Shown here in pieces: positions 1 through 59,567 of a stretch of DNA of 64,000 nucleotides. The DNA comes from Takakia lepidozioides (lineage: Eukaryota > Plantae > Bryophyta). Each line of letters opens with the position of its first letter. Within the stretch, counting starts at the first letter, position 1. Made by a program: the position numbers and the translations under genes. The notes beneath the pieces were generated by a model, which saw nothing but the letters and a program-made list of their open reading frames with translations, had not been told where the DNA came from and searched no databases. The stretch covers positions 69,006,001-69,070,000 of the forward strand of contig CM060731.1 of NCBI GenBank assembly GCA_030704615.1, read 5' to 3'.

Positions 1-721
1 CAACCGTCTCAAAGCTTTCGAGTTGAGAGACTATCAGACCCTACCTTTGTTTTCTTTAGTGTTCAGTGAGCGGGAGATAGGGGAGTATTGCTTTGTCTCT
101 ACCTGGCAGAAAGAGGAGGAGGGTTGGTTAGAGCGAGCTACTGTAGCTTGGGACAAGCTTAGTGGCAGTTTCTGGACATAGATATACCTCCTACACCTTA
201 CCATCATGCAGAGCGAGGCACTTTGAGAGAAGTCTGGCAGTTGATAGCATAGATCAGGATTGGATCTTGCTTGGTTGGGCTTCTATTCTTCCCCTCCATC
301 TCTGTACTATTTTCATTACCTTGTACTTGCAGTTGCCAAAGCCTCTCTTGGTGGAGGCTAGTCAGTCCGGGGTTTTGGGCTGGGATATTCTACAGGATCA
401 GCATTGCAGCTGGATTTTGGTGTGGGGGTGTTGATGTTTTGATTTCTTGTGTTTGGATCCCCCCCAACACCTGCATGCTTGACTGTGCGCCATGTTGGTT
501 TTGTGTGGGCGCTTGCTTTCATAGGGATTAGGCCGGATTTGATCACCGGTCAATCCTAGAGTATGCTGTCGATGGTGAGGCTGGAGTGATGACCAGCAAG
601 ACCACCAGTGTTTCTTCTATGGTGAGGCTGGGTTGATGACCAGCCAACCATAGGAGTTCTTGCGGTGGATGCAGGTGCAGGTGCCCTGAGCCATTGGGAT
701 ATGACCCTTAAAACTGCAACA
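1..721 (+). repeat. Probable 3' portion of the 5' LTR
   Basis: Ends in CTGCAACA just upstream of the gag ORF. The matching part of the 3' LTR is not visible in the window, so this is unconfirmed. Confidence 0.45.
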
Positions 722-772
722 GGTGCCCACCCGTGTCACTATTAGATTAGTACTAGAGCCTTATAGTGTCAC

Positions 773-3330
773 GTGGAGGAGGTGCACATTGTGAGTGTCA
801 TTACGGAGTTACCCAAGGGTGGTGAGGGGAGTACGGCTACAGGCAGTAACAGTGAGAGTGGGTTCACAAGACGAGGTATTCGGTTCAGACCACCTTCACC
901 GCCACCCTCAATTACTGTAGAGTCAGACACAGACTCGGAGGCTTCATCAACAGGTGTGCACTTTCATTCGCCATTGTTGTGGGACGACATGGAGGAGATG
1001 TATGGAGCTACCAAGGGGCCTCGTAGGTACTCTGGAGCTGTGGGCACAATCGAGTTGGATGACTTTATCCAGGAGTTCGACAGCTGGTGTGATTTGCAGC
1101 AGATGCGCAATCCACAGCTATTCACCCCATTCATGGCGTGGAAGGGACTGTTCCAACATTTGGAAGGCCCGCCTATGGACGATTACCACGAGTTCAGGCG
1201 AGGACATGAAGCAGAGATTGAGGAGTGGAGGATGTATTGGTCACCTGACTACGTCTCCATTACTCGAGGCACGACGCGACCAGTAGCTGCATCAGTACCA
1301 ATAGCTCCCACTGCCAGCACTAGTAGTGGAGCAGGTAGTGCTGGTACTTCTGCAGGTGGTACCAGTTCAAAAGGTGCTACTACTCCTCCTGCCACAACTA
1401 CAACACATGTGCCTAGATTCAACCCGGTGGTGGAGTTCTTCCAGGAGTTGCGGAGGAACTACCAAGGTGTACGGACAGAGAAGCTGCGAAGTTTGCAAGA
1501 CTTCCAGCGCAAACCCAGTGAGAGCCTGCGAGAGGCGTACACTCGTATGAGGCGCTTGATAAGTGTGACCCAAGGGGTTACTGAAGCTCAGGCAATCCAG
1601 TTTTGGTATGGAATTCTGGACAAGGAGCTCAAGAGAAGGGTGCGAGATGCAACCCTGTTACAAGCAGCCCAACCCACATTAGCAGATGTGTTTTTGCTGG
1701 CTGAGCGGATTGAGCTCAACATGGTGGAGGAGCGAGTTGTTACAATTGGATTTGGCAAGGACATGCCTGTACGGGGCACAGCTGTCAGCCCACAAGCACA
1801 AGGGACTGCCCAACAGCGTGGTCAGGGGGGCAAGGTTGCCCAGCCCAAGTTCCATGGAGCTTACAGGGGACCTCAGGTGCAGAGGCCCGTGGCATCTTTT
1901 GCAGGCCAACAGCAACCAGGGGTGATATGTTGGACATGTGGAGGACCCCATGTCAAGAGAGATTGCCCAGAGAGTGGCAGAAGGCCGGCACAAGCACAGC
2001 CTGCACAGTTGCAGTGTGGGCATTGTGGCAAGTATGGGCATGGAGATGCCCAGTGTTATGACTTGCATCCTGAGTTGCGCCCAGGCCAGTTCCAAGGGAA
2101 CAATGGTGGCCGGGGGCGAGGTGGACCAGCCCAGAGAGGACGAGGTGGTCGGGCACGAGGTGCAGGCCAAGGGCAAGCTCAACATGGCCAAGGACGCGGA
2201 GGTCAGGGCGTTGATCAAGGCATGGCCAACCGGCTTCAGCAGCTAGAGCAGAGGCTCGCTGCCATGGCTATAGCTCAGGCGGTACCGGCTCCCAGGCGGG
2301 ATGGTCCACCTCCTGCTCCTGAGGGAGGAGATATGGGAGGCATGGGATTTATGTGCGGAGCAGCACTACCACTAGAGCAGGTGGAGTCTGCTGCAGCCGT
2401 GACTCGAGGAGCAGCACGAGTTCCTGAGCCACGAGGTGCAGAGGTGGAATTGGATCCACAGCGTGGGGAGGCAAGCCGTCAGGCAAGGCTTCCTCAGTCA
2501 TTCACATTGGCGGAGACTGTGTCGACGCCATCCATGGCACCTAGTTCTCGCCCGACTGTTACCGAGGCGGAGGTTACTATGCCATTGGGGAGAGCTACAC
2601 GTGCAGCATTGACTCCTGCTGCCAAGGCTAGTGCGGCCGGTGTGTTATTGGGGGCAGCCACCTCTGTGTGTCAGGCCCCACTGTTCTCGGCAACAATGAT
2701 TGCGACGCCGGGGGTGAGACCAGCTGCAGTGTTCAGACTAGCAGCAACACTCTGTGAGAGTGGGGAGGTCACTTCATCTTCTGCGGAGTTAGTGGAAGGT
2801 GTAGTGGCAGAGGGATCCTCGGATTTGAGGGTCAAGACTGCCACGGCTGCGCCATGGCAAGTTGCAGCTGCCAGGTTGACGGAGCTGCCAGCTAGGCCAG
2901 CCATTGAGCGCGCCATGGTGACACCTGGAGTTGTCTTGTTAGACAACCAGGGAGGCATTTTCACTTTGAGTGGACCGGCAGGCAAGAAGTACCGGCCACT
3001 GCGGGTCTTGTTGGACTCAGGAGCTCAGCCACTGATGTTGGGCAGAGCTGCTATTGCAGGTTTGGGCCTCATGGAGGCGGATATGGAGCCTTGTCCTTTC
3101 CAGATACAGACATCTCTGGGAGGATCAGAGCAGGCTCGCGGCATGACACGGCATCAGTTGGCTATTAGACTGCAGCCGGATCATCCTGTAGATGGCTCAG
3201 TGATGCGAGCCAAGGCCATTGTGACAGACGCGGTCTCTTACGATGTCCTCGTTGGTGGGGCAGTGTTATACCCCATGGGCTTCACCCTGGATTTCTGGGA
3301 GGAGTCAGCATCCTACAGGCCTGGATGGCA
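773..3330 (+). CDS. gag-pro: Gag (capsid-like region, two zinc knuckles, RGG-rich) and aspartic protease portion of the polyprotein
   Basis: Knuckles CWTCGGPHVKRDC and CGHCGKYGHGDAQC; protease motifs VLLDSGA and YDVLVGGAVL. True start codon uncertain. Confidence 0.9.
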
Positions 3331-3727
3331 GTCAGGGGATGGTCGCCGTGCACAGCTCCCTGTGACATTCATTGGGGGTATTGCAGCTGCCCAGCGGGGC
3401 AAGATGCCAACACTAGCCGCCTTCACAGCTGCAGTTAGTTGGCCTGGAGAGTTGCTGGAAGGCAATGCCCATGCAGAGGATGTGCCACCTCCAGCAGAGC
3501 AGGATGACATGCATGGTACGGCGGAGTTGCCTGCCATGGTTGCTCACACTCCGTTGTGGGGTACGAGCAAGGATTTGCAGCAAGCTGCTGATGGACGGGT
3601 GCAACAAGCTTGGGAAGAAGCTTTTGTACCGTCAGGAGAGGAGGAGAGTGCGGTGATTGCACCAGGGCCACCTCAGTTGTCGCCATTGGACACCACACCT
3701 CTTGTGTGGCAGCGGCCGGATGAAGGC

Positions 3728-4680
3728 ATTTGCCTTCTGGACTTGTTTGGCGGGATCAGCACCGGATTGGCTGCTGTGCTACAGGCAGGTGTGCGGGTAA
3801 GGCGTTACCTGTATGTGGAGAGGGATGAGACTGCACGACGCGTCTCACTGCGCCATGTGGCTCAGTTGGTACAGCAGTACCCTGACTTGTTGCCTGTGTC
3901 TGCAGTTCGTGGATACCAACAAGCCTTGCCAGCAGACATTTCCTTGTTGGGGGCGCAAGATTTGGAGCAGGTTGGCTCCATTGATCTGATAGTGGCAGGT
4001 TGGCCCTGCCAAGGGCATTCATCAGCCGGGCATGGCAATGGATTGCGAGACTCGAGGACGGGTCTGTTTTGGGAGATGGTGCGGATTTTGCGCTGCTTGC
4101 AGCTTCATCAAGCTGTATCTCCAGCATACATCTTGGAGAATGTCCACTGATGGGTGATTCTCGGGCCAGGGTGATGGCCAGTGTGCATCAAGTCCGGTCG
4201 TGGCTTGGGTCAGCAGTGTTGCTGGATGCAGCTGCAGTGGGGTCACGGGCTCATCGTCCACGACTATGGTGGACTAACTTGATGCCACCCGCACTGCTCA
4301 AGCGTGCATTTGATGGGGTGCAGCGGCCAGCACACCTCACCGTGGATGGCATTTTGGACACAGGAAGGCAGTCTCAACGTGTGAGACACGATGACCGTTC
4401 GCCTTTGGCAGTGGTCAACAGGGTGGGTCAACCACGAGCAGCATTACCTACACTGCTCAGCTTCCCAGGATCCCATGCTTTTCGGGATGGTGGACCTGGC
4501 CTCTTGTGGGATGCTCAGTTGCAGCAGTTAGTGGAGCCTAATGCCGACGAGCGAGAGCGGGCTATGGGGTTTTCCACTGGGACCACGGCGGTGCCTTCTC
4601 TTTCTGAGGCATCACGTCGTCAGGTGTTGGGGCAAGCAATGGATCTCAATTGCTTGACCTGGATTGTCAGCTTGGCTATG
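3728..4680 (+). CDS. DNMT3-like C5 cytosine DNA methyltransferase domain within the retroelement polyprotein (1-bp frameshift at about 4145)
   Basis: Motif I LLDLFGGISTG, IV DLIVAGWPCQG (catalytic PC), VI YILENV, VIII AHRPRLWWTNL, IX ERERAMGF, X RRQVLGQAM. All are in canonical order and parallel the DNMT3 motifs. Confidence 0.93.
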
Positions 4681-4974
4681 GCTGAGCAACGTAGAGTGCG
4701 GAGTGCACTTCCCTTGACGGTCTCTCTGCCTACCGAGACGGTACAGGCAGCGAGTGGGGGCGAGCCGGTGAGGACCACGAGGTGTAGACATCCATGGCAC
4801 ATGTGGGAGGTGCTCGAGGTTCAGAGGGAGTTGGCAGCGAAGGCAGCTGTGATGGATGAGGTTGGGGATTCTTCTCGGGATGAGGAGGTTCTCAATGATG
4901 AGATGATGGGGCAGGATGAGGCCTTGTCATTGACTGAGCAGGAAGGGGGTACTGCTCAAGAGGTTGCAGCATAG

Positions 4975-7900
4975 CAACCACGGGACGCGTCCTCTACCTC
5001 TAAGCCCACTGGACTTAAGGTTGCAGTTACGGAGGACAATTGGGAGCCTGACATTGGACCCATTGTCACCGGAGGAGAGAGACGACGTATACGGCGGTTC
5101 CTGAGGGCTTACAGGAATTGCTTTGCCTTCAGTTTGAAGGACTTGGGAGCACTGAAGGGTCAAGAGATCCGTATTGAGTTGGCCACTGACACGCCAATCT
5201 TTCGGAGACCCTATAGATACAGTGACATGGAGAGGTCTTTGATTCAGATGAGGACTCAAGATCTCTGGGAGGCAGGTTTGGTGGAGCTCTCTGGTGGAGA
5301 GTATGCTTCAGCCACAGTGATGCCAGCTAAGAAGGATGTCTATGGCAATTGGACGGAGAGACGTATGTGCGGTGATTACCGGCCTGTAAATCGTCAGACC
5401 AAGTCCGATAGGTATGCCATGCCAACACCAGAGGAGATCTTTGATGCCATTGGGCATTCCAAGGTCTTTAGCACGTTGGATTTACGATCCGGATATCACC
5501 AGTTGCCGATCAAGGAGGCGGATAAGCAAAAGACGGCATTCTGGGGGATCAATGAGCACGGGAAGGATTGCCTATACCAGTGGCGGTTCTTACCATTTGG
5601 GCTTAAAAACGCTCCCGCTGAGTTTCAAAGAGTCATGGACAGGATTCTAGCAGGGGTGGAGTTTGCTCGGTGCTACATAGATGACATCATCATCTTTAGT
5701 GCTACGGTGGAGGAGCATGAGAGACACCTTCAGGGGGTATTTGAGCGCTTGAGGACGCACGGATTGAAGTTACATCCGGGCAAGTGCAAGTTTTTCCACA
5801 ACCAGATTGAGTATCTGGGTCACATGATATATCCTGGAGGATTGGGGGTACAGCAGACTAAGGTAGAGTCCATTGCACAGGTTCCACGCCCCACGGATGT
5901 GAGCCGAGTTCGAGCTTTCATGGGGTTAGCAAACTATTACAGACGGTTTGTTAAGGGATTTAGTGCCATTGCAAAGGCTCTAACCAAGCTGACCAAGGTG
6001 GACCAGGAGTGGCAGTGGGAAGATGAGCAAGAACAAGCTTTTCAAGAGCTCAAGGCGAGGTTGACCTCGGCGCCCATCTTGAGACGACCTATCAGGGGGC
6101 GTCCTTTTCAGCTGCATACAGATTGGAGCATGCTGGGGCTTGGAGCGGTGCTCACACAGGTGGATGATGAGGGAAGAGAGTTCGTAGTGGCTTATGCTAG
6201 CCGCTCGAACAATGCTGCAGAGTCTAAGTATAGCTCATATGAGGGAGAATGCTTAGCTGCAGTGTGGGCCGTGGCACACTTCAGGTGCTATCTATACGGC
6301 AATCTCTTCACCCTTGTCACGGATCACCAACCACTCAAGTGGTTGATGGAGTCAGACAAGCTTACGGGGAAGCTTGCACGGTGGGCACTCATCCTTCAAG
6401 AGTATGACTTTCAGGTGGTGCATCGACCGGGTTTGGTCAATCGAAATGCAGATGGGTTGAGTCGCAATCCATGCACGAGCCAGCAGGATGACACTGGAGC
6501 TCGGTGGCATGGTGAGACGGACGAGGAGATGGTGCCCGGATGGCATGCATCTGCATTTCTGTGTATCTTGGCAGCGGAAGGCCAGGTTGGACCTACAACA
6601 GGGATGACTGTAGATCAAGTGTCTGAGGACCCTGAGGCCAGCAATGAGCAGGGTGGCGCCAAAGATATACATGAGGATTCAGTTGTGTTGGACTACCTCC
6701 GCAGTGGAGACACGGCAGCCACTATGACTGCCAAGGAGAGGGATCGGATCCTACAACGAGCCAAGAGGTTCAGGTGGGAGGGGACACACCTGCTCCGAGT
6801 GTGGGAGGATGGTCGAGTGAGGATTGTGCCTCACCCAACACAGCGGGCACGGTTAGTGCGGCATGCCCATGAGGAGTTGGGGCATTTTGGGGTGCGACGC
6901 ACTCATAGTCTACTGCAGGGGCAGTATTGGTGGCGTGGTATGCACACAGAGGTGCAACAATTTGTGGCTAGGTGCATGGTGTGTGACAGGGTGCGTGCTT
7001 CATTCAACGCCCCTACTCCACAATTGCACCCTCTTCCGATCATGGGATTGGGCTACAGGTGGAGTCTTGACTTCGCAGGGCCGTTGCCACTGACCATGCG
7101 CCACAACAAGTACGTGTTGGTGATGGTGGAGCACTTCTCCAAGTGGATTGAATTGGTTCCATTGCCTGATAAGGCTAGTGAGGGAGCTGCGTATGCATTC
7201 CTGGATTGTGTGCTTAGCCGATTCGGTGCTCCAGCTGAGGTACTCACGGACCAAGGGAGAGAGTTCTTGGGGGAGTTTCAGGCTTTGTGTGACAAGGCCT
7301 TGATAGACCACCGCACCACTTCTCGGGATCATCCTGAAGCCGATGGCTTGGCAGAGAGAGTTGTTCAGACAGTAAAGAGGGGTTTGCGCAAGTATGGCTT
7401 GCAGAAGGGACACCTAGGAGATTGGGACCTTCAGTTACCTGGTTAGCCATGGGCTACAGGTTCAGCAAGCAAGCATCACTTGCCTCTTTCTCACCATACT
7501 TTCTTCTCTTTGGCCGAGAGCCGGATTTGCCTACATCCATTCGCAGAGAAGCTGCTACAGTTCTTAACCTTGACGATCCGGACGTGTGGGCACGTGCATG
7601 TGAGCAGCGTGCAGAGTTGTTCAAGAGAGTCATGCCCATGGCTTTCGAGAACCTTGCCATTGCACAACACCGTGATACGTTGAGGTATGCTACCATACGT
7701 GGTGGGGGCTATCGTCCTGGGGTTCGGAGATTCAACCCTGGTGACTATGTCTATCTGCAGCAGACTGCTCCTACGACCCTGGATGTGACTGCAGGACGTG
7801 TTATTTTGAGGGTTCGAGAGGTCTTGCCCTCAGGCGTCTTGGTCTTGGAGGGTCGGGATGGCATAACTTGGAAGGACCATGTGCGTAATTGTGCGCCATG

Positions 7901-8108
7901 TCACCTTCCGAATGTCGATGGCAGGATTGACCCAAACCTGGCAGTGGTATCTGCAGGTTTGAGGTGCATGTTGTGTGGGTCTGCTAAAGGGGCAGCCACC
8001 ATGCTGGTGTGTGATCGATGCTCTAGAGGTTGGCATATGGGGTGCTTGACTCCACCTCTTGAGATGGTTCCAGATGGGGATTGGTTATGTCCACAATGCA
8101 TTGGATAG
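4975..8108 (+). CDS. pol: Pol: reverse transcriptase, RNase H, integrase, C-terminal PHD finger (1-bp frameshift at about 7439)
   Basis: RT motifs LDLRSGYHQ, PFGLKNAP, YIDD; RNase H HTDWS, TDHQPL, NADGLSR; integrase HHCC zinc finger and D-D-E (WSLDF, TDQG, AER). PHD CMLC...CDRC...WHMGC...WLCPQC at 7965-8099. In frame with the upstream ORF across the TAG at 4972. Confidence 0.95.
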
Positions 8109-8368
8109 TGGGAGTGGATACAACCATGGGAGGCTAACAAGCAACGCAAGGCCCAGCTACTAGGAGACCTTGAACACACGAGGTCTTGGCTCAAGTTCAC
8201 AGATTGCAAGATGGCGACTAACGATGGGGCTACTCTTGTACCCGGCCTCTTGGTCTATAGAGTTTGAGTACAATAGGAACAGTGATAGAGGACTTAGTAC
8301 GGCTGTGGCTATTACATCTTGTAGCTATCTGGAGGTAGATGGACCTATCCACCAGCTAGGGGGGCGAT

Positions 8369-8889
8369 TGTGGCAGACTACTTTATTGTGCATATATGTG
8401 TGGTGTGGTTTGGACAGCGATGTAGTTGTGTAGCGATATGTATGCGCACGACAGCTGTCAAGTTAAATAAGCACAGTGTGAAAACAGCTAGAATAAAACT
8501 AGTTATTTGTATTTAACACTTGGATTTAGGTCAAGTGTTAAATCAGGTGTCAAGTTTAGTTTGACACCTGGTCCGTCTTATCTTCACGAGAGCGGCAGTC
8601 GCGCGGCTCATCTTTCTCGAGTTGAGCCTGCGCAACCGAGCTCCTGCATGTGTTTAGATTTGAGTGTGCTTATGTAGGGGTACAGGTTGTTGTGGGGTGG
8701 AGTCCCCATAGCTTGGGGTGCCCCTGGCTCGACTACTATTTCTAAGAGTGATGGTTTGGTTTTCATGTTTTGTGTCAACAGTGTGTTCGTTGGATTTCTA
8801 TCATTGTGGCAGACTACTTTATTGTGCATATATGTGTGGTGTGGTTTGGACAACGATGTAGTTGTGTAGCGATATGTATGCGCACGACA
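8369..8889 (+). repeat. Start of the 3' LTR, with an 87-bp direct duplication (8367-8453 / 8803-8889) and two adjacent hairpins (8511-8570)
   Basis: Follows the PPT; the duplicated segment has one mismatch; perfect 12-bp and 10-bp stems. Confidence 0.65.
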
Positions 8890-10770
8890 AAGCTTCTTAG
8901 TAGCTAGTATCAGCTTCCAGTACTCTAGTCTAGTTTCCAGCATTTGGTACCCCAGTTCAGTTTCCAGCATTCCAGTATTCGAGTCGAGTTCCAGTATCTT
9001 GTACTCTTGTCCATTGTTATAAAAATTATCTTGATTCATGTTATCCACCATGCATTCGGCCACGCCGACCTTGACTTCTTGTCTAGTCTTGTACCTCTAG
9101 TCTGATCTCTTGTTTGTGTTCAGTCATGTTCTCGTTCTTGACAGTTTGGCGAGACTAAAGTTTGTTCCTTAGTTAGTTAAGATGGAAGGCACATTTGCGG
9201 AAATGGTCGCCACATTGTAGAGTCTTCAGCTCCAGATGCAAGAACTTCGTACCTCTACTGCCCAACTACAAGCTGATCAGTCTCAAGATCTTGACAACGC
9301 TCTCAACAATTTGCAATAACAAATTTCAGAGTTAAAGGAGTCGAACAATGGATCTTCAACCTTACGAGTCTCTACTCAACAAATCTTACTGCAACGGTTC
9401 ATCCAAATCTTCAACAGATTACAAGCGACCAAAAGTCAGCATGCTCGAAAAATTTGATGGGACGAGATAAAGATTTCGCGGTTTTGTTCAACAAGTACAA
9501 TTGTTCCTACGACTACATCCACAACGCTACCCTGATGAAGGTATTCAAGTGGGATTTGTGGGCACCCTTTTATCCAGCACTGTCATATCTTGGTTTGCAC
9601 TGCTATTAGAGAAAAATTCGCATTTAATATATAATTTTGAATCGTTCATGTCCGAGTTCACTGCAACGTTTGGAGAAAATGATAGAGAGAGAGTTGCAGA
9701 GACAAAGATGCGAAATCTTCGACAAGGAGCACGTCCAGCTTCCGTTTATGCTACCGAATTTCGACAACTTGCGTGCGACCTCGACTGGAATGAGAAGATT
9801 CTCATTAGTCAGTTTCGATGTGGCCTAAAAGATGATGTTAAAGATTTGTTGCTGACAATGCCAAACGTGAGTACACTGAGCGAATTCATCACCCAAGTCA
9901 TTGCATGCGATAATCGTTTGTTCGAAAGACGTCAATAGAAGCGATATGGATGGTCGACGACGCACCATGCCGCTGCTACTATGGCACCAAACACAACGAT
10001 CCATCAGACATCCGGTAATGATCCTATGCAGATTGATGCTGTCCGATTCAAGCCATTGACGCCACAAGAAAAACAAAGACAGCGCTCGAATGGATTATGT
10101 CTTTATTGCAGATGATTACATAGCATTAAACTGCCCCAACAGAGAAGATTCAAAGCTCGGGGCACAATTCAAGTGTTTGATACGAGGAGGTCGGAAAACG
10201 AAGATGTCCAGCCACAGTAGGGACCATGCGGCTGGACACCCCAAATTCCTAAAAAAAAAAAGGTCTATTTCTACCTCCAGACCCTGTACCTTGTTTCACA
10301 GTTCCAGTAAAGATCAGGATGCAAAATCGAGATATCTCCGTAGAAGCACTTTTGGATTCGGGCGCTTCAGCGTTTTTTTATTGATAAAAACTTTGCGAAA
10401 CAACACAATTTAATGCTCGTAAGAAAGAAATTCTCGGCCCCTGTTGAAGTCATTGATGGACGACCGTTAGCATCAGGAAATATTGATCATGAAACTCAAT
10501 CCCTTGAAGTGAAGCTTAAAAATCAAGCATCACAGATTGTTTTCAATGTCATCCAGTCTCCAATGAATCATGTGATCCTTGGACTTCCCTGGTTTGTACT
10601 TCATAATCCTGACATCGACTGGCGATCACGAAAAATTTCGGCAAGACAAAAATGCAAAAGTACCAAAGGTATTCAACCCCTGTTTCTTGGAGCTAGAGCC
10701 TTCATGAGAGCTACGAAGAAAGTGAATATGTACATTTATTTTGCATGGGGTTTTAAAACCCCAAATTGAT
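8890..10770 (+). mobile_element. Truncated, degenerate Ty3/gypsy (Tcn1/chromovirus-like): LTR end, gag, protease
   Basis: LTR-like end CTTGACA at 9143. Gag EKFDG...FLRLHPQRYP...LRQG...YATEF and a degenerate LCLYC knuckle. Protease ALLDSGAS...VILGLPWF..HNPDIDW. Multiple stops and frameshifts. Confidence 0.85.
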
Positions 10771-11474: not shown

Positions 11475-12882
11475 CTTCCACAAGTCAGTTTCGTTCTTTT
11501 TTGCATTATCATTGTTTTTCGGCGGCTTCCCAATTGATGCATAAAAGCTTCTCAGGTGACCCAATTTTTCGCTAAAAGTTGTGTCAAACTTATGTGCTTT
11601 GTTCGGATCATTTTGAAGCTTGGAGAGCTTCACCAGTTGTAAGTACTATTTTGACCACACAATCATGGCCGGCCATTCTCCAAAGTAGTTTGTGAGCTGC
11701 TCGTCTGTATCCAAATCCTCAACAAGTTCCTACAGACACAATTCCATGTTGTAAAGATTTAATTCATTCGACGTCGACATTGATGTCGACGTTCAATTGA
11801 CTCGACGGTATCCTACTTCATTCTAATAGACGTCCATAGCATATAACGTCGACATGAATGTCGAGGTTCTAGACCAATTTCAAATCTACTTGCTGAATTC
11901 TAGAGTCAAGAGACAGATCTGGTTAGCAAGTACCTTGGCAGCCACAATCGTGTGTTGCCCTCCGATAATGAAAAATTTCGTCGATCTCCGCTGATCTCGT
12001 TGGTATCTTCTCACATACATCGTCCTCCTTCTTTGGATCAATTGGAGTGAGGTATACCGGATGTTGGGCATCCAGATGTCGGAGCTGCAGGAGTCTGGTT
12101 TTGACCTCATCTTTGTGCTTGAGGTTCAAAGGTCGGTAAACCATATGTTTAGGAGCAAGATTCATTCGCGATATCGGTATTTTGAAAGTTCTACTAAAAC
12201 CGAATGGAAGCATGTCTCATTCTACTAGATTTTTTGCCAGTTCTATTGACTTATCCTTGTCGTAAATGTCGGCTGTCTTGGGTCTCTTTACGTCGGGAGC
12301 AAAAGCTCGATCGATGGATTTCTTTGGTTTCCACTTCTTTGAGGATGATCCAGCACCTTCCTGATCTTGTTCTGTTACTGATGACCCTGCCGTAGACTTA
12401 CGTCTTCGTCTTGCTAGTGTTTCCGTTCTTTGTTCCATGTTTTCATTACCGGCTGCGAACAATACATCCTGAAAATGGCCCCAGGAGTGGATAAATGTTC
12501 TAGTATCTTGACCGATGTTGCTGTCTTCATTGAACTTGAATCTTTTTTTGATTGATTGTTTCATGAGGTTCTTGCGGACAGAATTTCCAGATGCTACGTA
12601 CCCGAATGTTTTTGGTACCCTTCCATCCTCAGCAACAAAGATCACCAGCATTGGAGATTGTATGTTCGTCTGGGTTTCCACTTCCTTCACGTATGCGTAC
12701 TTAAGCTCTGTAACATTGCTTCCCGCCTTGTACTGAAACCGGAGCTTGTGATCTGGAGGTTCCTCAGCGACTTCAATGCCCCATTCTTCTATGCTGCTCT
12801 TCAGTTTGTATATAGCTACATGCTCGGTCTTGTATCCCGGGGATCTGATAGATAAGAAATCCCCACAAATGTCTGCAGACAT
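11475..12882 (-). pseudogene. ParB/Srx-fold-like protein gene (TE-associated), disrupted
   Basis: IPISRM...YRPLN...V...HPVYLTP...FFIIGGQHTIVAAK resembles a ParB N-terminal domain. In-frame TGA at 12217, frameshift at about 12005, GT-AG intron at about 11730-11933. Confidence 0.6.
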
Positions 12883-13203
12883 TCCAGGTTGGCAGTCTTC
12901 GGGGGCCTGAGAACTGCAAAAGCCATATGTCCAATATTTGATCAGGAAAACACCTCGACATTAATGTCGACGTTAGAAAATGTTTATGATGTGACCATGA
13001 TATTTAATCACACTATCTTTTCCACATACAATGAAGGACAAACCAAATCCTACAAGGTTTGTAAGCTCAAATACATTGAAAAATCTTTGTAAATATCCAT
13101 CTTTCATTTACATCAGAGAGCAACTAAGATTTACAACACATTCCTCAACAATGAGACAACATTACTCAAATATCCAGAGACCAGTGTCTTCATCACAATA
13201 GAT

Positions 13204-13675
13204 TCAACCTAACCAAACAGGTTCCAAAAGAGGACTCATCTTTTGATCTTGACCTTGAGTTCCCGATAGCCCAAGAATCTCGGCATAGACGTTGTCCATG
13301 TGTAGCTCATATTCTTCGGGGTATGACATGCGTGGAACGTAAGTCTCTGGACTGTATGTTTCTGGACTGTAAATTTCTGGAACATATGTAGGGTAGAATA
13401 ACATGTATTCATATGGCCGTTGGATATTTCGTTTAGAGGAAGGAATGTAGTGTGGTGAGGCTGACATATATTCAGGGGAGGACGGATAATATCCAGGCGA
13501 GTCTGCTGCCTCTGAACCGGATGATGAGTAGGCTAATTTCAGGTGGTTCAATGAGGTCCGGAAGCTCGTATTCGGGAGTTCCGGGAATTGGGTAGAAATT
13601 CGATCGTTTCATCCTTTCCAGAATAATCACTCCTACACAACCACCTATGAACTGCCTCAGTTCATTGAAACACAA
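13204..13675 (-). pseudogene. Small Y/S/P-rich ORF with Pol II CTD-like heptads
   Basis: YYPSSPE-YMSASPH-YIPSSKR and YSPETYSPETY; frameshifted 5' part. Confidence 0.3.
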
Positions 13676-15069
13676 AATCTTGTTGATCCTACTTTTCCAA
13701 AGAATTGTTCTAAATTAACTCGACCTTGACATGAATGTCGACGTCCATTCGCAGAAGACCGTTTTCCTAAATTGCCTGTCCTGAGTAGACAGCCAGTGAC
13801 AGTTAGTTTCAACCTATCTCACATGACGCTTCATCATCTACTGAAATAACTGCAGTTAGATTTACGCTGCACTTAATATAACTCTATTGTTATATAGAGT
13901 TATATCAGAATCTTAACGTCGACATTAATGTCGAGGTTCTTCATCTATTGTTTATTGATTAACAATACTTGAGGTAATTGTAATCTTCAGTCCACGTAGA
14001 GTTGTGAAGAAAACTAATCTTATTGCATGAGAACGTTGACATTAATGTCGAGGTCCAATTCCCTCGTTGGACAGTCAACTAACGTGTTCATCCAAATTCT
14101 ATAAAAAAAACGTGAAATCTACAAATGCTATTACAGAAAGCTAATGTCTAGGCTTACCTCCCCCTCCTCGACACTAATATGAGAGTCCTGAACCTCGACA
14201 TTAATGTCCAGGAAGTTTAAAAGGTTCATCAGCAACATGGTTACGTACACTGGAAAACTGAGAGATGTTCAATTTATACAGGATGCCTCTAAACCTTGAC
14301 ATTCATGTCGAGGTTCCCTCCCCTTGTCGGACAGCTATAACAAAAGTGCTCATGTAGATGGTTGACAATATATGACACCCATACATGGGACCGAAACATC
14401 TACACCCATACTGGGGTCCCGAAATGCCTACATGCATTAATGTACCTCGACATCAATGTCAAAATTGTTTACAAAGAGAGTCGTCATGATGTCCACCTAC
14501 ATTGCACATTATGTTGACATTACAATAGACATACTTTGCAAAATCGGGCAACATTATGTCGAACTACATTGGAGAGATACTCCAAATTTACTCGAGATTT
14601 GTGTGTGTTTGTGATTTGCTTCAGGTGTGTGCATGTGTGTTTGCATTTTTAATTAATCCTAGGTGTGTGTGATTGTATGTTCTACTGATTTGCTCTAGGT
14701 GCGTTCATTGAGTTATATCTGGCCATGAGTCTGCTCCAACCTCACTCTCTTTAACCTGCAAACAAGGCAGACAACTGTCAATTGGTGGACCAATGAAATC
14801 AAACTAAAGAAATCCAAATCAAACTCAAACTCAAGATAATTCAAAACAAGTCATCTAATTATACATGCTGCAATGTGGAATTATGTTTGTACATCTATTT
14901 TATCTCTGCCCTGCTGGAATGTATTTGTTGCCCGTGCTGTTCCTATGCAGCTCCTGTTGCTCCTGTCCCTACTCAGCCTATTGGAGCTTAAATTGCAGGG
15001 CTAAGGTTCTGAAACCCTTATTTCAACAAGCACATGGACAAAGAGATAGAGAAGACACATGGGCAAAGA

Positions 15070-17235: not shown

Positions 17236-19255
17236 TTGGTGGGACAAATGAGGCAAAAAGGTGAATGCCTGCAGATTACCAGATATCATTCTAAAGGCTG
17301 CACACACAAGAGGTTCTTTAGGGTTGATGTTCGGTGAAATCCTCCATGGGTCATGACACAAGGTCACGGACAATGTGGTGAGTGCACCTTCTTCTTCAAC
17401 CTATTTCTGTCTGTTTTACCCTCTCATCAGACTCGGCCTTGAGATGCATATTGAACTCTGTAAGTTAGCTCGTTGGGTGGATGTGTGGTGGTTAAGAGTG
17501 ACTTTGACAAGTTACTGCTGATGTGGCAGCAGGCAAGTATCCAAAAATAGATCACACCTTCTTCAACACATTTCACCTTGTTTTCCCCTCTTATCAGAAT
17601 CTGCCCTACATTTCCATGTTGAATTAAGTGAACCTTTGGTAGTTTGGAGTGACTTTGACATGATACTGCCAATGTGACACAGAAAAGTATCCAAAAACAG
17701 GTAAACAGAGATGAGGAGAAGCTGTGGGATAAATACTTTTTTGACCCCAGCCAATGGTGGGACAAACGAGGCAAAAAGGTGAATGCCTACAGATTACCAG
17801 ATGTCATTCTGAAGGCTTCAGGCACAAGCTGCACACACACAAGGTCCTTTAGGGTTGATGTTCGGTCAAATCCTCCATGGGTCATGACAAAAGGTCAAGG
17901 ACAATGTGGTGAGGGCACCTTCTTCTTCAACCTATTTCTGTCTGTTTTACCCTCTCATCAGATTCGGCCCTAAGATGCATATTGAACTCTGTAAGTTAGC
18001 TCGTTGGGTGGATCTGTGGTGGTTAGGAGTGATTTTGACAAGTTACTGCCGATGTGGCAGTAGGAAAGTATTCAATAACAGATAACACAGATGAGGAGAA
18101 GGCACTTTCTTCAACACATTTCATCCTGTTTTCCCCTCTTATCAGAATCTGCCCTAAATTTCCATGTTGAATTCTGCAAGTTATTAGCTGTGAGTGAACC
18201 TTTAATGGTAGTTTGGAGTGACTTTGACATGATACTACCAATGTGACATAGGAAAGTATCCAAAAACATGTAAACAGAGATGAGGAGAAAATGTGGGATG
18301 AATACCTTTCTGACCCCAGCCAATGGTGGGACAACCAAGACAAAAAGGTGAATGCATGTTAGATTACCAGATGTCATTCTGAATGCTGCAGACTCGGCCC
18401 TGAGATGCATATTGAATTCTGTAAGTTAGTTCGTTGGGTGGATCTGTGGTGGTTAAGAGTGACTTTAACAAGTTACTGCCAATGTGGCAGCAGGAAAGTA
18501 ACCAAAAACAGATAACATGGATGAGGAGAAGGCACCTTTTTTACACATTTCACCCTGTTTTCCCCTCTTATCATAATCTGTCCTAAATTTCCATGTTGAA
18601 TTCTGCATGTTAGCTGGTTGAGTGAACCTTTAGTAGTTTGGAGTGACTTTGACATGATACAGCCTATGTGACAACAGGAAAGTATCCAAATTAAACAGGT
18701 AACAGAGATGAGGAGAAGCTGTGGTATGAATACTTTTCTGACCCCAGTCAATGGTGGGACAATCGAGGCAAAAAGGTGAATGCCTGTCAGATTACCAGAT
18801 GACATTCTGAACGCTGCAGACACAAGTTGCACACACAAGAGGTCCTTGTTTTACCCTCTCATCAGACTCAGCCCTGAGATGCATATTGAATTCTGTAAGT
18901 TAGTTCATTGGGTGGATCTGTGGTGGTTAAGAGTGAGTTTGACAAGTTACTGCTGATGTGGCAGCAGGAAAGTATCCAAAAACAGATAACATAGATGAGG
19001 AGAAGCTCGTTGGTCGATCTATGGTGTTTTGTAGTGATTTTGATATGTTACTGTAGGTAGGGTTGGGGTGTTTGCTGGAAGAACTTCATGCTGTCAGTCT
19101 CAGCTGCTAGCAGCAAGGCTGAGGTTGTTTTCCCTCTTATCAGAATGGGCCCTAAATTTCCATGTTGAATTCTGCAAGTTAGCTAGTTGAGTGAACCTTT
19201 GATAGTTTGGAGTGACTTTGACATGATACTGCCAATGTGACAACAGGGAAGTACC
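17236..19255 (+). repeat. Tandem array of about 4 units (430-570 bp), each with a degenerate OSB 'PDF'-motif-like coding segment
   Basis: TGGTGGGACAA recurs at about 17237, 17755, 18324 and 18752. Translation LWDKYFFDPSQWWDKRGKKVN..LPD...SNPPWV resembles the OSB PDF motif. Confidence 0.7.
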
Positions 19256-20180
19256 TCAACCATGACCACAGCTTCTGAAAGAGGATCAAGAGAGGGAGTC
19301 CACAATGCCTCTTTTGGCACTTCTGGGATGTAAAGATACTTTGTGCGGCAGGCAGACTAACAGAGGCTCTACAGACTCTAAACCAACCTGGAGGCATTTC
19401 AACAGATGCAGATATGTATGTCTGTCTCTTGTTTAAGTGCATCAAGATGGCAGGTCTGGAAGCTGGAAAGCAGGTGCACACTCACATTATCCAAAGTGGA
19501 TTCACGCCAAATGTTTTCCTACTCAACACCCTTGTCAACATGTATGTCAAGTGCGGGAGCATCACGGATGCTCACCAAGTGTTCAATAGAATGCCCAACA
19601 ATCTTTGATCAGGTGGAATATAATGTTGGCAGGATTTACTGAGCATGGGTGTGGTAGGATTAATGCTTTGGAGACCTATGAGCAAATGTTGCGTGAAGGG
19701 GTGAAGCCCTACCACATCACGTTTGTTTGTGTTTGCAATGCGTGTGCAAGCCTGGGGGCTCTGGAAAAGGGGAAAGAGGTCCACGGTAACATCGTCAAAG
19801 CTGGAATTGTACCAGATGTCATCTTGAACACTACCCTGGTGGACATGTTTGCCAAATGTGGGTGCATTAAGGATGCGAAGGGAGTTTTTAACACTCTGGC
19901 TGAACAAGACGTGGTGTCGTGGAGACTGCCCTTGTGGTCATGTATGCCAAATGTGGAAGCATGAAGGATGCATGTCAAATATGGTAGGGAGGCTCTCCAT
20001 GTATTTGAACACATGCAACAGGAAGGGTGAATGGTATCACCTTTGTATGTCTTCTATTGGCATGTAATCACGGGGGCCTACTGGATGAAGGCCAACATTA
20101 TTTTGATTCTAGTCGAGATCATGGGCTCGATGCTACTGTGGAACATTATGGCTGCATGGTGGACCTTTTTTGCCGTGCAT
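19256..20180 (+). pseudogene. PLS-class pentatricopeptide repeat pseudogene
   Basis: GKQVHTHIIQSGFTPNVFLLNTLVNMYVKCG; NACASLGALEKGKEVH...DMFAKCG; ACNHGGLLDEG...VEHYGCMVDL. Several frameshifts. Confidence 0.9.
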
Positions 20181-22128: not shown

Positions 22129-25100
22129 TATGTTACATGCTACTGCCAACCAACATAGTTCTGGCAATGCACTTGTATCAGCCTTTCCCTTAACACACTA
22201 TCCTTAACCGATTATCTTACCGGGGATCCCTGAAAGCAAACGTCTCCAGGAAGGTAGGGTATTATCCAGAAGGTAGCTCTTTTGCATTGATCACCACCAA
22301 GTTCCCATTAGTTTTGAACTTCCATAAACGGCCAATTACTCACTACACTACAGAGCAGTTAAAACAGTTACTATAATAATTTAATCAGAATTGGCTATTG
22401 GAAGCCTGTTTGACCAGTCCTAGCTGGATTTCCTCTCATAGGCCGCCTGGACAATGTTATTATGTCACTTATTTAGCCAGAACTAATAGCCACAATGCAA
22501 AGATAATTGGGACATATCAGCCCCAATTAATGCTATAAACCACCAAACTTAGTTAGCTTGAGAAAAATCCATCTTTGCCAAGCCCAACGTCCTGGATGAA
22601 TTGCAAAACGATGAAGGATTTCACCACACCCTGAGCACTAGAAGACATGGGCACGTTGGAAACCCTTGCACATAGATGACATGGAGGTGAGAGTCAAGCC
22701 TAGATAGCTTCTACCACAATGGATGACTATTAATTCACATTTAGCATTATGATGAACGCCGGAACAAATATGCATTAAATAAAAAACAACCAAGTTTTTT
22801 CATGAAACCGTGACATTAAATCAAAATCCAAACGATTTGAAACCTAAACCAAGTGAAAATAAATATGAAAAGATATCATATAAACAACATTTATAAACAA
22901 AATCTACTTGTTGTATCAAACGAGCCAAAGTCATTATACCGGTCAAATTAATATAAAATGAAACAAGCCTCAAATTGCAATGGGCTCTCTTGCTTTGGCA
23001 AAACGTAAGAGGAAGGGAAAACTAGGGAGCATGATTCAGCATACCACAACAATCATAGGCTTGACACAGTGTAAGGTCCTTTGACCATATTTTCTCCGTT
23101 TTAGCATGATGCGTAGTCTCTCTACAAGACAGCCAATAAATGTTCATCTGTTCATAAAACTTGAATATAGCCCATCTATCTGGACGTTGTTATCAGAAGT
23201 CGTTGCTAGTAGTGCAGAGCAACGCGAAGCCCTAGTACTATAAGTAATGCATGCAGAATGTGATGTGTAGTTCGATGGTAAGCTTCCCTCTGTTTGGTTT
23301 CCTATACAGGAGGAGCTGTATAATTACTCTTATGCAGGTAATTTTGCCTTGTTTTGCACTTTCAACCTATAATAAGATATAGAAAGTAGATAATATGTAA
23401 CTAGAAAATAGAAAAATTAGAAATAGGGTATAAAAATAAGCAGTATGTCCCATCCGTTGGATCTCTACGATCCAACGGCTTCCCCGCCCTCGAAAAAAAA
23501 AACCAAAAAATCAAAAATCAGCTGCTAAGGGTTCTGTCGAACCTCGACGCACACGCCGATGTCTTCACTATTGAGCCCGCCACAACAAATAACCCCAACC
23601 GCCGTTGAGATGCACATTCAGGTAAAATAAATGGTCGATAATAAATAATAGCTAAGTGGAAAATAAGCAAATAGTATAATGGAATTAATAAGAAATCGTG
23701 GGTCCTCCCATCCGTTGGATCCTTGGCATTCACTGCGATCCAACGGCTCCCCGCTTCCCCAAAAATATATAAAAAAGAAGAATAACAATCGGCTGCGGAT
23801 GGTCACGTCGAACTTCGGCACACATGTCGAGGTCTTTGCAATCAAATGACTTTCGCCCGCCCAAAAACAAAAGACCAAAAAAGAAAATAAACGTGTTTGA
23901 CCTAACCCGTGGTTGAGAGTTAGGTCAAATGACGCTCCATCACAAAATAAAGGTAGGGTTTATGGCGGAGCCTTGGGGTTAGGTCAAACCTCACTGCCGT
24001 TGGATCGCGATAAGCCAATAGCAGAGATCTTGGCGATCGAACGGACGGTGTGCGGTTTAACTCCGCGATGCGCCCACGTCCTCCGTTCGATCGTCAAGAT
24101 CATTTGACGCGTCGCGGGCTCTCTACGTCCGTCAGATTTGTGACAGTCCTAATCAACGGTTGGAGCACTTGATCCATGTGGTGTATTCTTAATCATTTGC
24201 CTTGGCGCATTAACAGCGCCCTGACCACCGCCAGATCTGTTGGCATCTTTTTTGTGTACCTTTGCATCAGCCAATATTCTCATGAGTATTTGCCTTAAGC
24301 TTTAGGGTTTACCAAAGCATCTGTTCATGTACAGACACAAGTTCATCGTGTAGTCACATTATGTTCAAGCACAATAGTGTTTGTTTTAGGTTTTAGAGAT
24401 TTCAAGGTTTGCTTAATTTCTATTATTTTTCACCGTTACATACCTTAATCTCCCTACATTTTTACAACTATCATCCATGCCTCATCCACTTGGATGATTT
24501 ATTCATCCATTTTTTATTCATCCATAGTAACGTCGACATTAGTATCAAGGTCTGGCGGATTGTTGTTTAAATACAAGCTAAAGTCTCATACTTGACCTTC
24601 ACTCTGTCCCACATCACATCAAATACCTTAAAATACCTACTAGTGCATCTGAATATGATAACATGTCTTCTTCTTCACTTGGTTTTTTTTTTTTTTTTTT
24701 TTTTTTTTTCCTCTTTGGGTCTTCATTAACATATTTACCTGATTTATTGAATGACTATTAGGATATCCAGTAAAGGCTGCTATTTTTTTTCTATCCATCT
24801 TTATCCGTCGAGACTAAAGAACGTCGACATTCATATCGATGTTCTATTCTTTATATCATTTCTTATTTTTCTTGGTCCTCATCGACACATCCACATGACA
24901 TATTCTAATTCTCTTAATATTTCTTCCTCGGTCGGAGTTTTCTTTCTTTCTATCTCTTAATTAGGATATTCAGCTACAGTCCTTCTACTTTTCCTATTTA
25001 TCTCTATTAGTAGAGACTAAGGAACGTTGACATTCATTTCGACGTTCTGTCTTTTCTTGCAATGGATTCCTTATCATCTTGTCTCCAAATCTTCCTCTGT

Positions 25101-40439: not shown

Positions 40440-41731
40440 CAATTCAGAAAAGAAAACGAGAAAGAACATGTGTGAAATATGATAAAACGAGAAAGATGCC
40501 ATGACAACGTTGCCTCCTTCTAGTAGCAAAGAGGTAGGGTAGAGGATGGATGCTGCTTGCTTGGAGTTGGGAGCCAACATTCACTCAAAGAATACAAGTT
40601 TCTCGCTACATCAGTTCCATTTGTCTCTCGTTCACTGAAAGACAACTTTTTGGTTGTAGTTCCATCTGTTACAGTCACTCGACCGAGTTGCATCTCAAAG
40701 AATAATGCCAACTTAGCAGCTTCCGCAATCATTCGCCCTAGTGGCAGTGCAGTTACCAAAGACGACACAGGGAGTATAAAGGGATATGATGAAAATGAGG
40801 AAGAGGCCATGGTAACGTTGCATCTTTCTGGCAGCAAGGAGGTGGGGTCGCGGATGGATGCTGCTTGCTTGGAGTTGGGAGCCAATGTTCACTCAAAGAA
40901 ATACAAGTTTCTAACTACAGCAGTTCCATCTATCTTTGTTCACTGAAAGACGACTTTCCATTTGTTACAGTCACTCGGCCGAGTTGCATCTCAAAGAAGA
41001 AGCCCAAATTAGCAGCTTCCACAAGCGTTCGCCCAGTGGTGGACTGAAGACGACGCATGGAGCATCAAGGAATATGATGAAAACAAGGAATAGGCCATGA
41101 CAACATTGCATCTTTTTGGCAGCAATGAGGTGGGTCGAGGATGGATGCTGCTTGCTTGGAGTTGGGAGTCAATGTTCACTCAAAGAAATACAAGTTTTTA
41201 AATGTAGCAGATCCATCTCTCTCTCGTTCACTGATAGACGACTTTCTGGCTGCAGTTCCATCTGTTACAATCACTCACCCGAGTTGCATATCAAAGAAGA
41301 ATGTCAAATTAGCAGCTTCCGCAATTGTTCGCCCCAGTGGTGGTGCAGTCTTACGAGTGTCAGAAACGCCCAAACCCATGGGAGGACGAATAAACCTTCT
41401 GTCAGCAAGGGAGTGGGGGAGCATCAAGGAATATGATAAAAACGAGGAAGAGGCCATGGAAAAGTTGCATTCTTTTGGTAGCAAGGAGGTGGGGTTAAGG
41501 ATGGATGCTGCTTGCTTGGAGTTGGGAGCCAATGTTCACTACAAGAAATACAAGTTTCTGGCTACAGCAGTTACATATTATGTCTCTCGTTCACTGAAAG
41601 ACAACGTTCTGGCTGCAGTTCCATTTGTTAGGAAAAGGCCATTAGTAGCTGCTAGAATGGTTTGTCCTAGTGGTGGTGCAGCTACCAAAGGCGACAAGGA
41701 GCTTGCAAGGAGCATCAAAGGTATCCGATGA
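40440..41731 (+). repeat. Four tandem units of about 290-360 bp with conserved coding-like content (MDAACLELGANVHSKKYKFL)
   Basis: ATGGATGCTGCTTGCTTGGAGTTGGGAG at about 40546, 40854, 41141 and 41501. Confidence 0.8.
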
Positions 41732-50599: not shown

Positions 50600-51100
50600 T
50601 TCTTACCATGTTTTCGCAGCACTAGCCTTCATGCTGGAATGTGGGACATCAACTGCTGAAGAAACCAATAAACTCAGGGCAGCTAATGGGGGTCGATACC
50701 TTGGCTTGGTTGAAAACACAAAGCAGTCAAAACGAGCGGGTTTGGTCCAATCCAGCTGGAGTCCTTCAAGGATCAAAACTTCCTCCCCTGTTTTAGTGGC
50801 TGGGGGTCTGGGTACTAGAAAACTGAATGGTTTGCTTTGCAAATGTATTTACAGTGTGTTAATTGTTGCTTAGAGTGGGAGTTGCCGTTATCACGGCAGC
50901 CACTTGGTTTGGGAAGTGGCCTTTGAACATGAGGCAAGCTTGGCCGTGGCAACGGTGCGGGATGTTTGGATGGTGCTGCTAGTATTTCCATAATTGACCC
51001 AGGACTTACTGACATTCTGGTATGTGTACCTGGCATCATGAAGCAGAGTTTCGTGAGATGTCCTGGATTCCTTAGCCACAGGTAGGTTGTGACGAATGGA
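50600..51100 (-). pseudogene. Polyphenol oxidase C-terminal (KFDV domain) pseudogene fragment
   Basis: YTYQNVSKSW...PRP...EEVLILEGLQLDWTKPARFDCFVF is similar to the C-terminus of the PPO at 57.9-59.5 kb. Confidence 0.75.
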
Positions 51101-56558: not shown

Positions 56559-56771
56559 ACCATTCAGTGTTGGAGTACCCAGACCCCCACCCACTAAAAC
56601 AGGGGAGGAAGTTTTGATCCTTGAAGGACTCCAGCTGGATTGGACCAAACCCGCTCGTTTTGACTGCTTTGTGTTTTTCAACCAAGCCAAGGTATCCACC
56701 CCCATTAGATGCCCTGAATCGTTCAGCAACGTCCACATTCCGGCATGAAGGCTAGTGCTGCGAAAACATGG
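56559..56771 (+). pseudogene. Second PPO C-terminal fragment, an inverted copy of 50606-50831
   Basis: Reverse-complement match of about 200 bp with a small indel. Confidence 0.8.
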
Positions 56772-59467: not shown

Positions 59468-59533
59468 ATCTTGCCAATCCTCCACAGCCGCGCACACAAC
59501 TCCCTCAAAGTCTCGCTCTCTGTGTCTGTGTCT

Positions 59534-59567
<34 letters not shown>

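Follow-up and report, generated by a model that had tools for sequence, protein, structure and literature searches.

A bryophyte family of Gypsy-type retrotransposons with a DNMT3-like methyltransferase ahead of a conserved, probably read-through stop codon

The sequence analyzed here, a stretch of 64,000 nucleotides (nt) from contig CM060731.1 (positions 69,006,001 to 69,070,000, forward strand), is referred to as the window. Its left part is occupied by a plus-strand retrotransposon encoding, 5' to 3', gag, two CCHC knuckles, a protease, a C5 cytosine methyltransferase, reverse transcriptase (RT), RNase H, integrase and a PHD finger. A leucine-rich repeat (LRR) gene and genes for a MADS-box protein, a polyphenol oxidase and a GDSL lipase also lie in the window. 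The first open reading frame (ORF1) of the element ends between the methyltransferase and RT at an in-frame stop codon, which is the main subject of this report.

Relatives were collected by searches with the two halves of the methyltransferase (DNMT). The N-terminal half matched 69 proteins, including 21 of Marchantia polymorpha, four of Calypogeia fissa and one of Sphagnum troendelagicum, a spread that goes against the one-off capture the first-pass annotation had named as a possible refutation. The C-terminal half matched 146 metagenome stretches; the best 80 of these, fetched by their methyltransferase match, are among the loci given L numbers below, and most of them share the domain order of the window element.

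Organization of the element and its methyltransferase domain

The capsid part of gag was placed at 989-1792, with a probable start codon at 989 in a frame open from 767. Its match to Pfam Retrotrans_gag was weak (E 0.004); the N-termini of Marchantia ORF1 proteins, which start at the matching methionine, are 64-67% identical to it. Two CCHC zinc knuckles (nucleocapsid) are visible in the translation at 1928-2056, followed by an aspartic protease at 2927-3361 with the active-site motif LLDSG at 3008-3022; Asp_protease_2 was matched in the relatives L081, P0036 and P0051. The methyltransferase occupies 3701-4698, and ORF1 ends with the stop and its context, TAG CAA CCA, at 4972-4980. ORF2 (4975-8108) gave Pfam matches to RVT_1, RT_RNaseH, Integrase_H2C2, rve and PHD, and contains the RT motif YIDD (5674-5685), an HHCC-DDE integrase and a C-terminal PHD finger (7950-8105). 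Its best solved relative was Ty3 Gag-Pol (E 1.1e-92), and in L081 ORF2 is a single open frame of 1047 amino acids (aa).

The polyprotein described at first is not one open frame in this copy, which has three interruptions: a one-base frame break near 4143, just after methyltransferase motif VI; the TAG at 4972-4974; and, within the integrase, a second break of one base near 7437-7440. Both frame breaks were attributed to damage, since the two halves are contiguous in relatives and the breaks are absent from contigs of other copies, which came from sequencing runs of organism A and of other labels. This copy is dead; its frame breaks are damage and its TAG is a trait of the family. From the arrangement of the frames, ORF1 would supply a Gag-protease-methyltransferase protein, and production of the RT-integrase-PHD part likely needs readthrough.

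The full set of C5 methyltransferase motifs that the first-pass annotation had seen between protease and RT was confirmed at 3737-4644. It consists of motif I (LDLFGGISTG, 3737-3766), motif IV (GWPCQG, 3998-4015), motif VI (ILENV, 4130-4144), motif VIII (RAHRPRLWW, 4246-4272), motif IX (DERERAMGF, 4546-4572) and motif X (RRQVLGQAMD, 4615-4644). The resemblance to DNMT3 in unpermuted motif order also held, but the letters quoted for it (LFDGIATG, AHRARYFWGN, RQRLLGRSW) are those of DNMT3 itself and do not occur in the window. The window domain matched Pfam DNA_methylase (E 1.7e-11). When the unbroken Marchantia relative P0005 was compared with the PDB, all 25 of the 25 matched sequences were DNMT3A, B or C. 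An AlphaFold model of the relative P0002 (mean predicted local distance difference test, pLDDT, 67; predicted template modeling score, pTM, 0.74; residues 250-306, between motifs VIII and IX, of low confidence) had DNMT3A as its best match, with E 8.8e-16 and about 20-21% identity. Of 119 domain-spanning proteins, 114 keep the catalytic cysteine motif, 116 ENV/T, 113 HRxR of motif VIII and 109 motif I. The Pfam matches of the element included neither of the targeting domains PWWP and ADD. Sequence and predicted fold together identify the domain as a DNMT3-like, unpermuted C5 cytosine methyltransferase. Marchantia has several gene models for complete ORF1 proteins (1278-1281 aa) whose catalytic motifs are intact, and the enzyme is probably active in unbroken copies.

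Substitution patterns were compared as the proportions of synonymous (pS) and nonsynonymous (pN) differences and, where these could be corrected, as dN/dS (omega). The window methyltransferase was compared with 79 of the 80 loci and gave a median pS of 0.74, near saturation, and a pN of 0.21; the 48 unsaturated pairs gave an omega of 0.08. For RT and RNase H the median pS was 0.76 and pN 0.17 across 61 loci, with an omega of 0.06 in 23 correctable pairs. The dN/dS test that had been suggested for neutrality of the domain thus returned 0.08 between lineages, and the methyltransferase is under purifying selection about as strong as that on RT. The observed/expected ratio (o/e) for CpG in the window element was 0.51 and that for CHG 1.12. 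C3G1 o/e values for the element were 0.31-0.50, with CHG at 0.86-1.37, and host genes had 0.56-0.80; for comparison, the value was 0.32 (CHG 0.36) in another RT-bearing element in L018 and 0.59-0.74 in L081.

The stop codon between methyltransferase and RT

In 43 of the 52 loci that contain both the DNMT and the start of RT, the first stop upstream of RT, read in the RT frame, was found at the same place. These 43 loci represent 37 distinct copies; 32 have TAG and 11 TAA, and CAA is the next codon in all 43. The window context, TAG CAA CCA, is an exact match to CAR-YYA, the type I readthrough motif defined in PMC3542737, and CARYYA comes after no more than 8 of the 5581 stop triplets that the window contains. 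In L081, a distant unbroken relative (identity 29% in gag, 50-54% in the methyltransferase and 69% in RT), ORF1, the sequence TAG CAA TCA and ORF2 all lie in one frame. The context is likewise exact in L059 and L064, in both cases as TAA CAA TCA. The first methionine of the window ORF2 is codon 85, inside the region that matches RT, and in L081 no methionine occurs in the first 100 codons of ORF2.

The database proteins agree in where they end, many relatives stopping about 100-140 aa past motif X. Of 78 proteins that take in the protease and the complete methyltransferase, 67 terminate after a further 63-165 aa and have no RT (P0012, counted among them, is an incomplete gene model in which pieces of RNase H follow), and five end sooner. 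The remaining six run into RT; three of these are bryophyte gene models with shortened linkers, and three are single-ORF elements from outside the clade. Conserved RNA structure was sought 3' of the stop in 60 and 100 nt of the window and six loci and was not found, z scores being near zero; for a 150-nt stretch the z score was -3.96 in the window and -0.36 to -1.88 in relatives.

On these comparisons the stop is assigned to the family as a trait and not to damage, and it is probably read through, though only at low frequency. In plant viruses CAR-YYA on its own is enough to direct readthrough (PMC3542737, PMC2194720), and in-frame stops set Gag:Pol ratios in other retroelements (PMC2194720, bioRxiv 10.1101/2022.12.06.519325).

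Relatives, split repeats and flanking sequence

The best named match of the flanking LRR gene was to Physcomitrium patens, at 57% identity, vs 38% or less for other named proteins. From this one searched flanking gene and the assembly, the host is a land plant, as originally proposed, and likely a moss. Contigs matching window positions 1-10000 numbered 99,350 in sequencing run X2 of organism A, a depth that gives no copy number, and a 5009-nt contig of organism B covers the element from methyltransferase to PHD. A Streptophyta cluster of 57 members was found in the ESM Atlas, and 42 pattern matches in IMG/VR included no relative of the element. Siblings without the DNMT were not seen among the loci, but a set fetched by methyltransferase cannot reveal them.

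A profile search gave 477 clusters at E below 1e-30. Three layouts of protease (PR), DNMT, RT, RNase H (RH) and integrase (IN) were distinguished. In the first, Gag-PR-DNMT, the protein ends before RT. The second, PR-DNMT-RT-RH-IN in one frame, was found in unnamed proteins and in the streptophyte alga Closterium, whose PR-DNMT-RT order agrees with the earlier suggestion that the lineage may reach back to streptophyte algae. The third, RT-RH-DNMT-IN-PHD, occurs in Haematococcus lacustris (a chlorophyte), P0271-P0284 and many unnamed proteins. Among the best 150 representatives the DNMT lies between RNase H and integrase in 81 and directly before RT in 8, and 51 have no other domain; motif IV reads ECQ, not PCQ, in 69.

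Quick trees were made from hand-picked rows, 51 for the DNMT (transposon domains only) and 23 for RT-RNase H. They carry Shimodaira-Hasegawa-like approximate likelihood ratio test (SH-aLRT) support only, have no outgroup and were midpoint-rooted for drawing, and no donor or order of events is claimed from them. The Gag-PR-DNMT layout formed one clade by DNMT (31 of 51 rows, SH-aLRT 98) and by RT-RNase H (7 of 23 rows, SH-aLRT 99). The RT-RH-DNMT-IN-PHD layout was a clade in both trees, with SH-aLRT 99 for the DNMT and 100 for RT-RNase H, and the two trees were congruent. As far as these sequences go, PHD-bearing Gypsy-type elements have carried a DNMT for long, its place having changed at least once or the domain having been captured twice. 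The relatives in Haematococcus may point to an older origin or involve transfer.

In the DNMT tree Marchantia, Calypogeia and the close metagenome subfamily stood together, at 66-78% identity, with this moss-like copy left outside the group; such a pattern could stem from old parallel lineages or from transfer among bryophytes. L081 and P0046 are filed in bacterial genome bins (cyanobacterial and Obscuribacterales) and are most likely mis-binned eukaryotic contigs. The two ends of L081 overlap by 127 nt.

An 87-nt direct repeat was found in the window at 8367-8453 (B1) and 8803-8889 (B2), the two copies being 99% identical. A polypurine tract, AGGGGGG (8358-8364), stands directly 5' of B1 and occupies the same place in L050 and L081. 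B2 forms the right end of the element, with its terminal CA at 8889. Repeat A2 (8456-8802) was inferred from the complete relatives L048, L050 and L058, in which the repeats are arranged as A-coding-B-A-B; the B-A-B part is visible in the window and in L009, L010 and L046. The long terminal repeats (LTRs) are accordingly split, and not paired as had been anticipated for sibling copies. At the B1/A2 junction (8447-8459) right-end and left-end sequences meet with two bases between them, giving the palindrome CA-GC-TG in the window, L006, L009 and L081 and variants of it in L010, L046, L048, L050 and L058. No second copy of the A repeat was found within positions 1-10000, and the left repeat is outside the window; by the spacing in L050, A1 of this copy is expected upstream of position 1.

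Relatives begin with TG and end with CA. Six loci were scored at both ends, and 4-nt target duplications were present at five (L015, L041, L048, L050 and L058), which amount to four insertions, L048 and L050 being one site; the sixth, L006, is cut by the contig end. In relatives the duplication adjoins the right end of B2. The 4-nt duplications and TG...CA ends therefore indicate insertion by a DDE integrase. The A-coding-B-A-B form might arise if integrase cut an end-joined intermediate at the palindromic B/A junction; a B repeat upstream of the left A was seen in no locus. Inspection by eye of the 40 nt after A1 in seven loci gave no primer-binding site starting with TGG, and no comparison with host tRNAs was made. 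Eight loci (L015, L027, L029, L038, L041, L042, L043 and L054) end in a single B, as A-coding-B, and a 4-nt target duplication is present at two of these. Such copies could be products of B1-B2 recombination, insertions of a one-repeat circle or collapses in short-read assembly.

Membership in DIRS, PAT or Ngaro was rejected, as an rve integrase and target duplications are present and no tyrosine recombinase was matched. Troyka was rejected on its CG...CG ends and 3-nt duplication (PMC12440569), vs TG...CA ends and 4-nt duplications here. The element agrees with Ty3/Gypsy in its PR-RT-RH-IN order after gag, its HHCC-DDE integrase and, from the ends of relatives, its TG...CA termini and 4-nt duplications; in place of one complete LTR at each end it has split repeats. 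It is a Gypsy-type element by its working and atypical by its repeats, which explain why ordinary LTR finders would miss elements of this kind.

Just to the right of the element, at about 9150-10770 on the plus strand, lies the remnant of an unrelated Ty3/gypsy element with Retrotrans_gag at 9471-9935 (E 1e-12) and a protease-like stretch at 10344-10766. An apparently intron-split gene on the minus strand (61403-62400) resembles N4/N6 DNA methyltransferases, with DMIILDIPD and then TVLDLICGTG before a likely intron. Its first ESM Atlas matches were all PF01555 N6_N4_Mtase with a score of only 0.81, which is a lead, and searches of Pfam and the PDB gave no match; a bacterial-type 4mC methyltransferase has been reported in Marchantia. 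An intron-less MADS-box gene with a K-box was located at 52289-53389 on the minus strand; a stretch between MADS-box and K-box, without a Pfam match at E 0.01, seems PPR-like. An inverted duplicate (50606-50831 and 56559-56771, arms 95-97% complementary) resembles a terminal piece of the polyphenol oxidase gene (57896-59605). Near-palindromic dispersed repeats of 36-42 nt (GTCGAC...GTCGAC type) and two longer degenerate repeat arrays were noted at 11750-14480, 24816-24857 and 26758-26799, at 17237-19294 and at 40462-41681.

Possible roles of the methyltransferase and comparison with known systems

The explanation that we prefer, which as a whole is slightly more likely than not, joins bulk synthesis of the methyltransferase in ORF1, low-level readthrough and marking of the element's own cDNA. 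The conserved stop predicts that Gag, protease and methyltransferase would be made in bulk, so that the enzyme reaches the particle in Gag-like amounts, and that occasional readthrough would add RT, RNase H, integrase and PHD in small amounts. The protease would free the parts inside the particle. The methyltransferase would mark cytosines of the new cDNA as it inserts or beforehand; CG is the probable context, judging from SymbioDIRS-Dnmt3. A new copy would then arrive already marked and resembling resident DNA, and the host maintenance enzyme could keep the mark. The PHD finger may guide the integrase to nucleosomes; it resembles the PHD fingers of CHD4 and PHF12 and PHD1 of KDM5, which are readers of the H3 tail with unmethylated K4.

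A number of observations weigh against this explanation. The 43 loci with the stop form one close subfamily, so that independent support comes from about four lineages; 35% of RT third positions in the subfamily are invariant too, and the constancy of the stop within it therefore counts for little. The sixth base of the context departs from CARYYA in that subfamily, which has CAA CCC in 39 of 43 loci, and an ATG two codons past the stop in 42 of 43 permits re-initiation. Nine of the 52 loci have no stop at that place in the RT frame: L061, L076 and L077 show the site with CAA read as TAA, in L047 and L059 it is out of frame, L043 carries an insertion at this point, and no matching stop-plus-CAR-YY was seen in L060, L063 or L080. 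The DNMT and RT lie in one frame in only 35 of the 52, the copies having decayed, and for ORF1-type database proteins the end of the protein is known and the DNA sequence at that end is not. Most related algal elements are without a stop beside the methyltransferase, and bulk synthesis is therefore not required for the role of the DNMT. Within the close subfamily (L001-L048) omega was 0.52 for the DNMT and 0.41 for RT, with no sign of strong constraint, as expected of decaying copies. The CpG depletion fits CG methylation and does not separate self-methylation from methylation by the host. Finally, the Klebsormidium domain was inactive in yeast, a result its authors regarded as inconclusive; human DNMT3B also failed in that test (PMC5890265).

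An unlikely but serious alternative is that the DNMT reaches the nucleus and acts for the most part in trans, either on host chromatin or on older copies and the site of insertion, thereby tuning how the family or the genome is silenced. Its position in ORF1 would imply an excess over RT and integrase, the full-length Marchantia ORF1 models retain their catalytic motifs, and the family is very abundant in organism A, to judge from the contigs of run X2. Against this, 81 of the best 150 representatives have the DNMT between RNase H and integrase, a position that ties it to the pre-integration complex, and the element enzyme is without the PWWP or ADD domain that could target it.

Somewhat less likely again, the stop would be real but not read through, and RT and integrase would depend on re-initiation, a subgenomic RNA or splicing, with the DNMT still a product of ORF1. 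The ATG and the CAA CCC of the close subfamily would suit such expression. In Candida Tca2 the flanks of the stop failed to give readthrough when tested in yeast, and promoter activity resides in the junction (PMC2194720); moreover, some Marchantia and Sphagnum gene models (P0020, P0030, P0054, P0287) fuse DNMT to RT through a shortened linker. These fusions, however, use differing junctions, as prediction artefacts would; exact CAR YYA is present in three distant lineages; and neither the window ORF2, with its first methionine inside the RT-matching region, nor that of L081 offers a suitable start.

That the domain persists for RNA methylation or for binding, say to nucleic acids or as a decoy that occupies host factors, in place of DNA cytosine methylation, is improbable. 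The yeast result for Klebsormidium, the ECQ form of motif IV in 69 of the best 150 representatives and the low-confidence segment of the P0002 model are consistent with a role of that sort. The catalytic Cys, Glu and Arg motifs are nevertheless kept in 113-116 of 119 proteins, sequence and predicted fold point to DNMT3, a DNA enzyme, and the failure of human DNMT3B in the same assay (PMC5890265) tempers the yeast result. One-off capture of a host DNMT3, a neutral passenger or algal contamination is refuted by the distribution and the selection signal and retains a negligible probability, for although this copy is broken and only the assembly joins it to plant genes, the same layout occurs in liverworts, Sphagnum and most of the best 80 loci, silent sites are saturated at a pN of 0.21, the DNMT and RT trees agree, and the nearest named relatives of both element and flanking gene are bryophyte.

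Extending the preferred explanation further, it is possible, if doubtful, that a group of green-lineage elements which reached land plants moved its translational switch past protease and DNMT, that the de novo DNMT packed in each particle marks cDNA ahead of insertion, that integration proceeds through the palindromic junction of an end-joined intermediate and not through ordinary LTR ends, and that in high-copy hosts excess enzyme also affects the methylome of the host, some CG methylation of bryophytes then being transposon-written. Why retrotransposons carry an enzyme that normally silences them has been a question since 2018, and the known hosts are hard to work with. Marchantia polymorpha is a genetic model with methylation mutants and methylomes, and substrate and purpose are therefore testable there. 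The stop also explains the mis-annotation of these elements as stand-alone 'hypothetical' or methyltransferase genes.

Methyltransferase-bearing retroelements were described by de Mendoza et al. (2018, PMC5890265) as KnitGypsy-Dnmt3 of Klebsormidium nitens and as dinoflagellate elements. KnitGypsy-Dnmt3 shares with the present family the Gypsy domain set, an unpermuted, intron-less DNMT3-like domain that keeps its key residues and is under purifying selection and, on a Gypsy body, A-coding-B-A-B repeats, an arrangement called the 'same as that of a DIRS retrotransposon' (PMC5890265). It differs in that the authors placed the DNMT in an ORF with RT and RNase H (review file of PMC5890265), whereas here the DNMT ends ORF1, and in its algal host, as against land-plant hosts here; the comparison is by description, no K. 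nitens protein being among the search matches. Later papers call this kind a streptophyte element (bioRxiv 10.64898/2026.05.21.726589, PMC12344493). SymbioDIRS-Dnmt3 and SymbioLINE-Dnmt of Symbiodinium also bear methyltransferases, in hosts that are not land plants, and de novo CG methylation in yeast has been shown for SymbioDIRS-Dnmt3 domains in isolation (PMC5890265); DIRS elements have a tyrosine recombinase, unlike the DDE integrase found here. The EpiLTRs of Cymbomonas and Euglena carry DNMTs that are sister to DNMT4, together with DAM and a chromodomain (bioRxiv 10.64898/2026.05.21.726589). The host DNMT3 of bryophytes and animals has the same unpermuted catalytic domain and DNMT3A-like fold (PMC6453930, PMC12344493); the element enzyme differs in being intron-less and transposon-borne and in carrying neither PWWP nor ADD nor the plant companion domain.

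A single in-frame stop likewise sets the ratio of structural to enzymatic proteins in MuLV, Candida Tca2, soybean SIRE1 and the fission-yeast elements Tj1, Tosmo and Tcry (PMC2194720, bioRxiv 10.1101/2022.12.06.519325). In those retroelements the stop separates gag from pol, or pol from env; the one described here falls inside the usual pol and leaves protease and DNMT on the Gag side. The context UAG-CAR-YYA is that of the tobamovirus type I readthrough signal (PMC3542737). The word 'Marchantia' is absent from the main text and three supplementary files of PMC5890265, the accessible text of PMC6317226 has no mention of PHD, methyltransferase, Marchantia or Klebsormidium, and the accessible parts of PMC6317226, PMC6453930, PMC11982613, bioRxiv 10.1101/363937, PMC6890710 and PMC12859917 contained nothing further on such elements. 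Among the openly accessible titles, abstracts and passages searched, no DNMT-bearing land-plant retrotransposon, no readthrough at this junction and no earlier case of a stop that follows both protease and an accessory enzyme were found. DNMT-bearing Gypsy elements were already known from Klebsormidium; the present bryophyte family is a variant in which the DNMT precedes, together with Gag, what is likely a programmed readthrough site.

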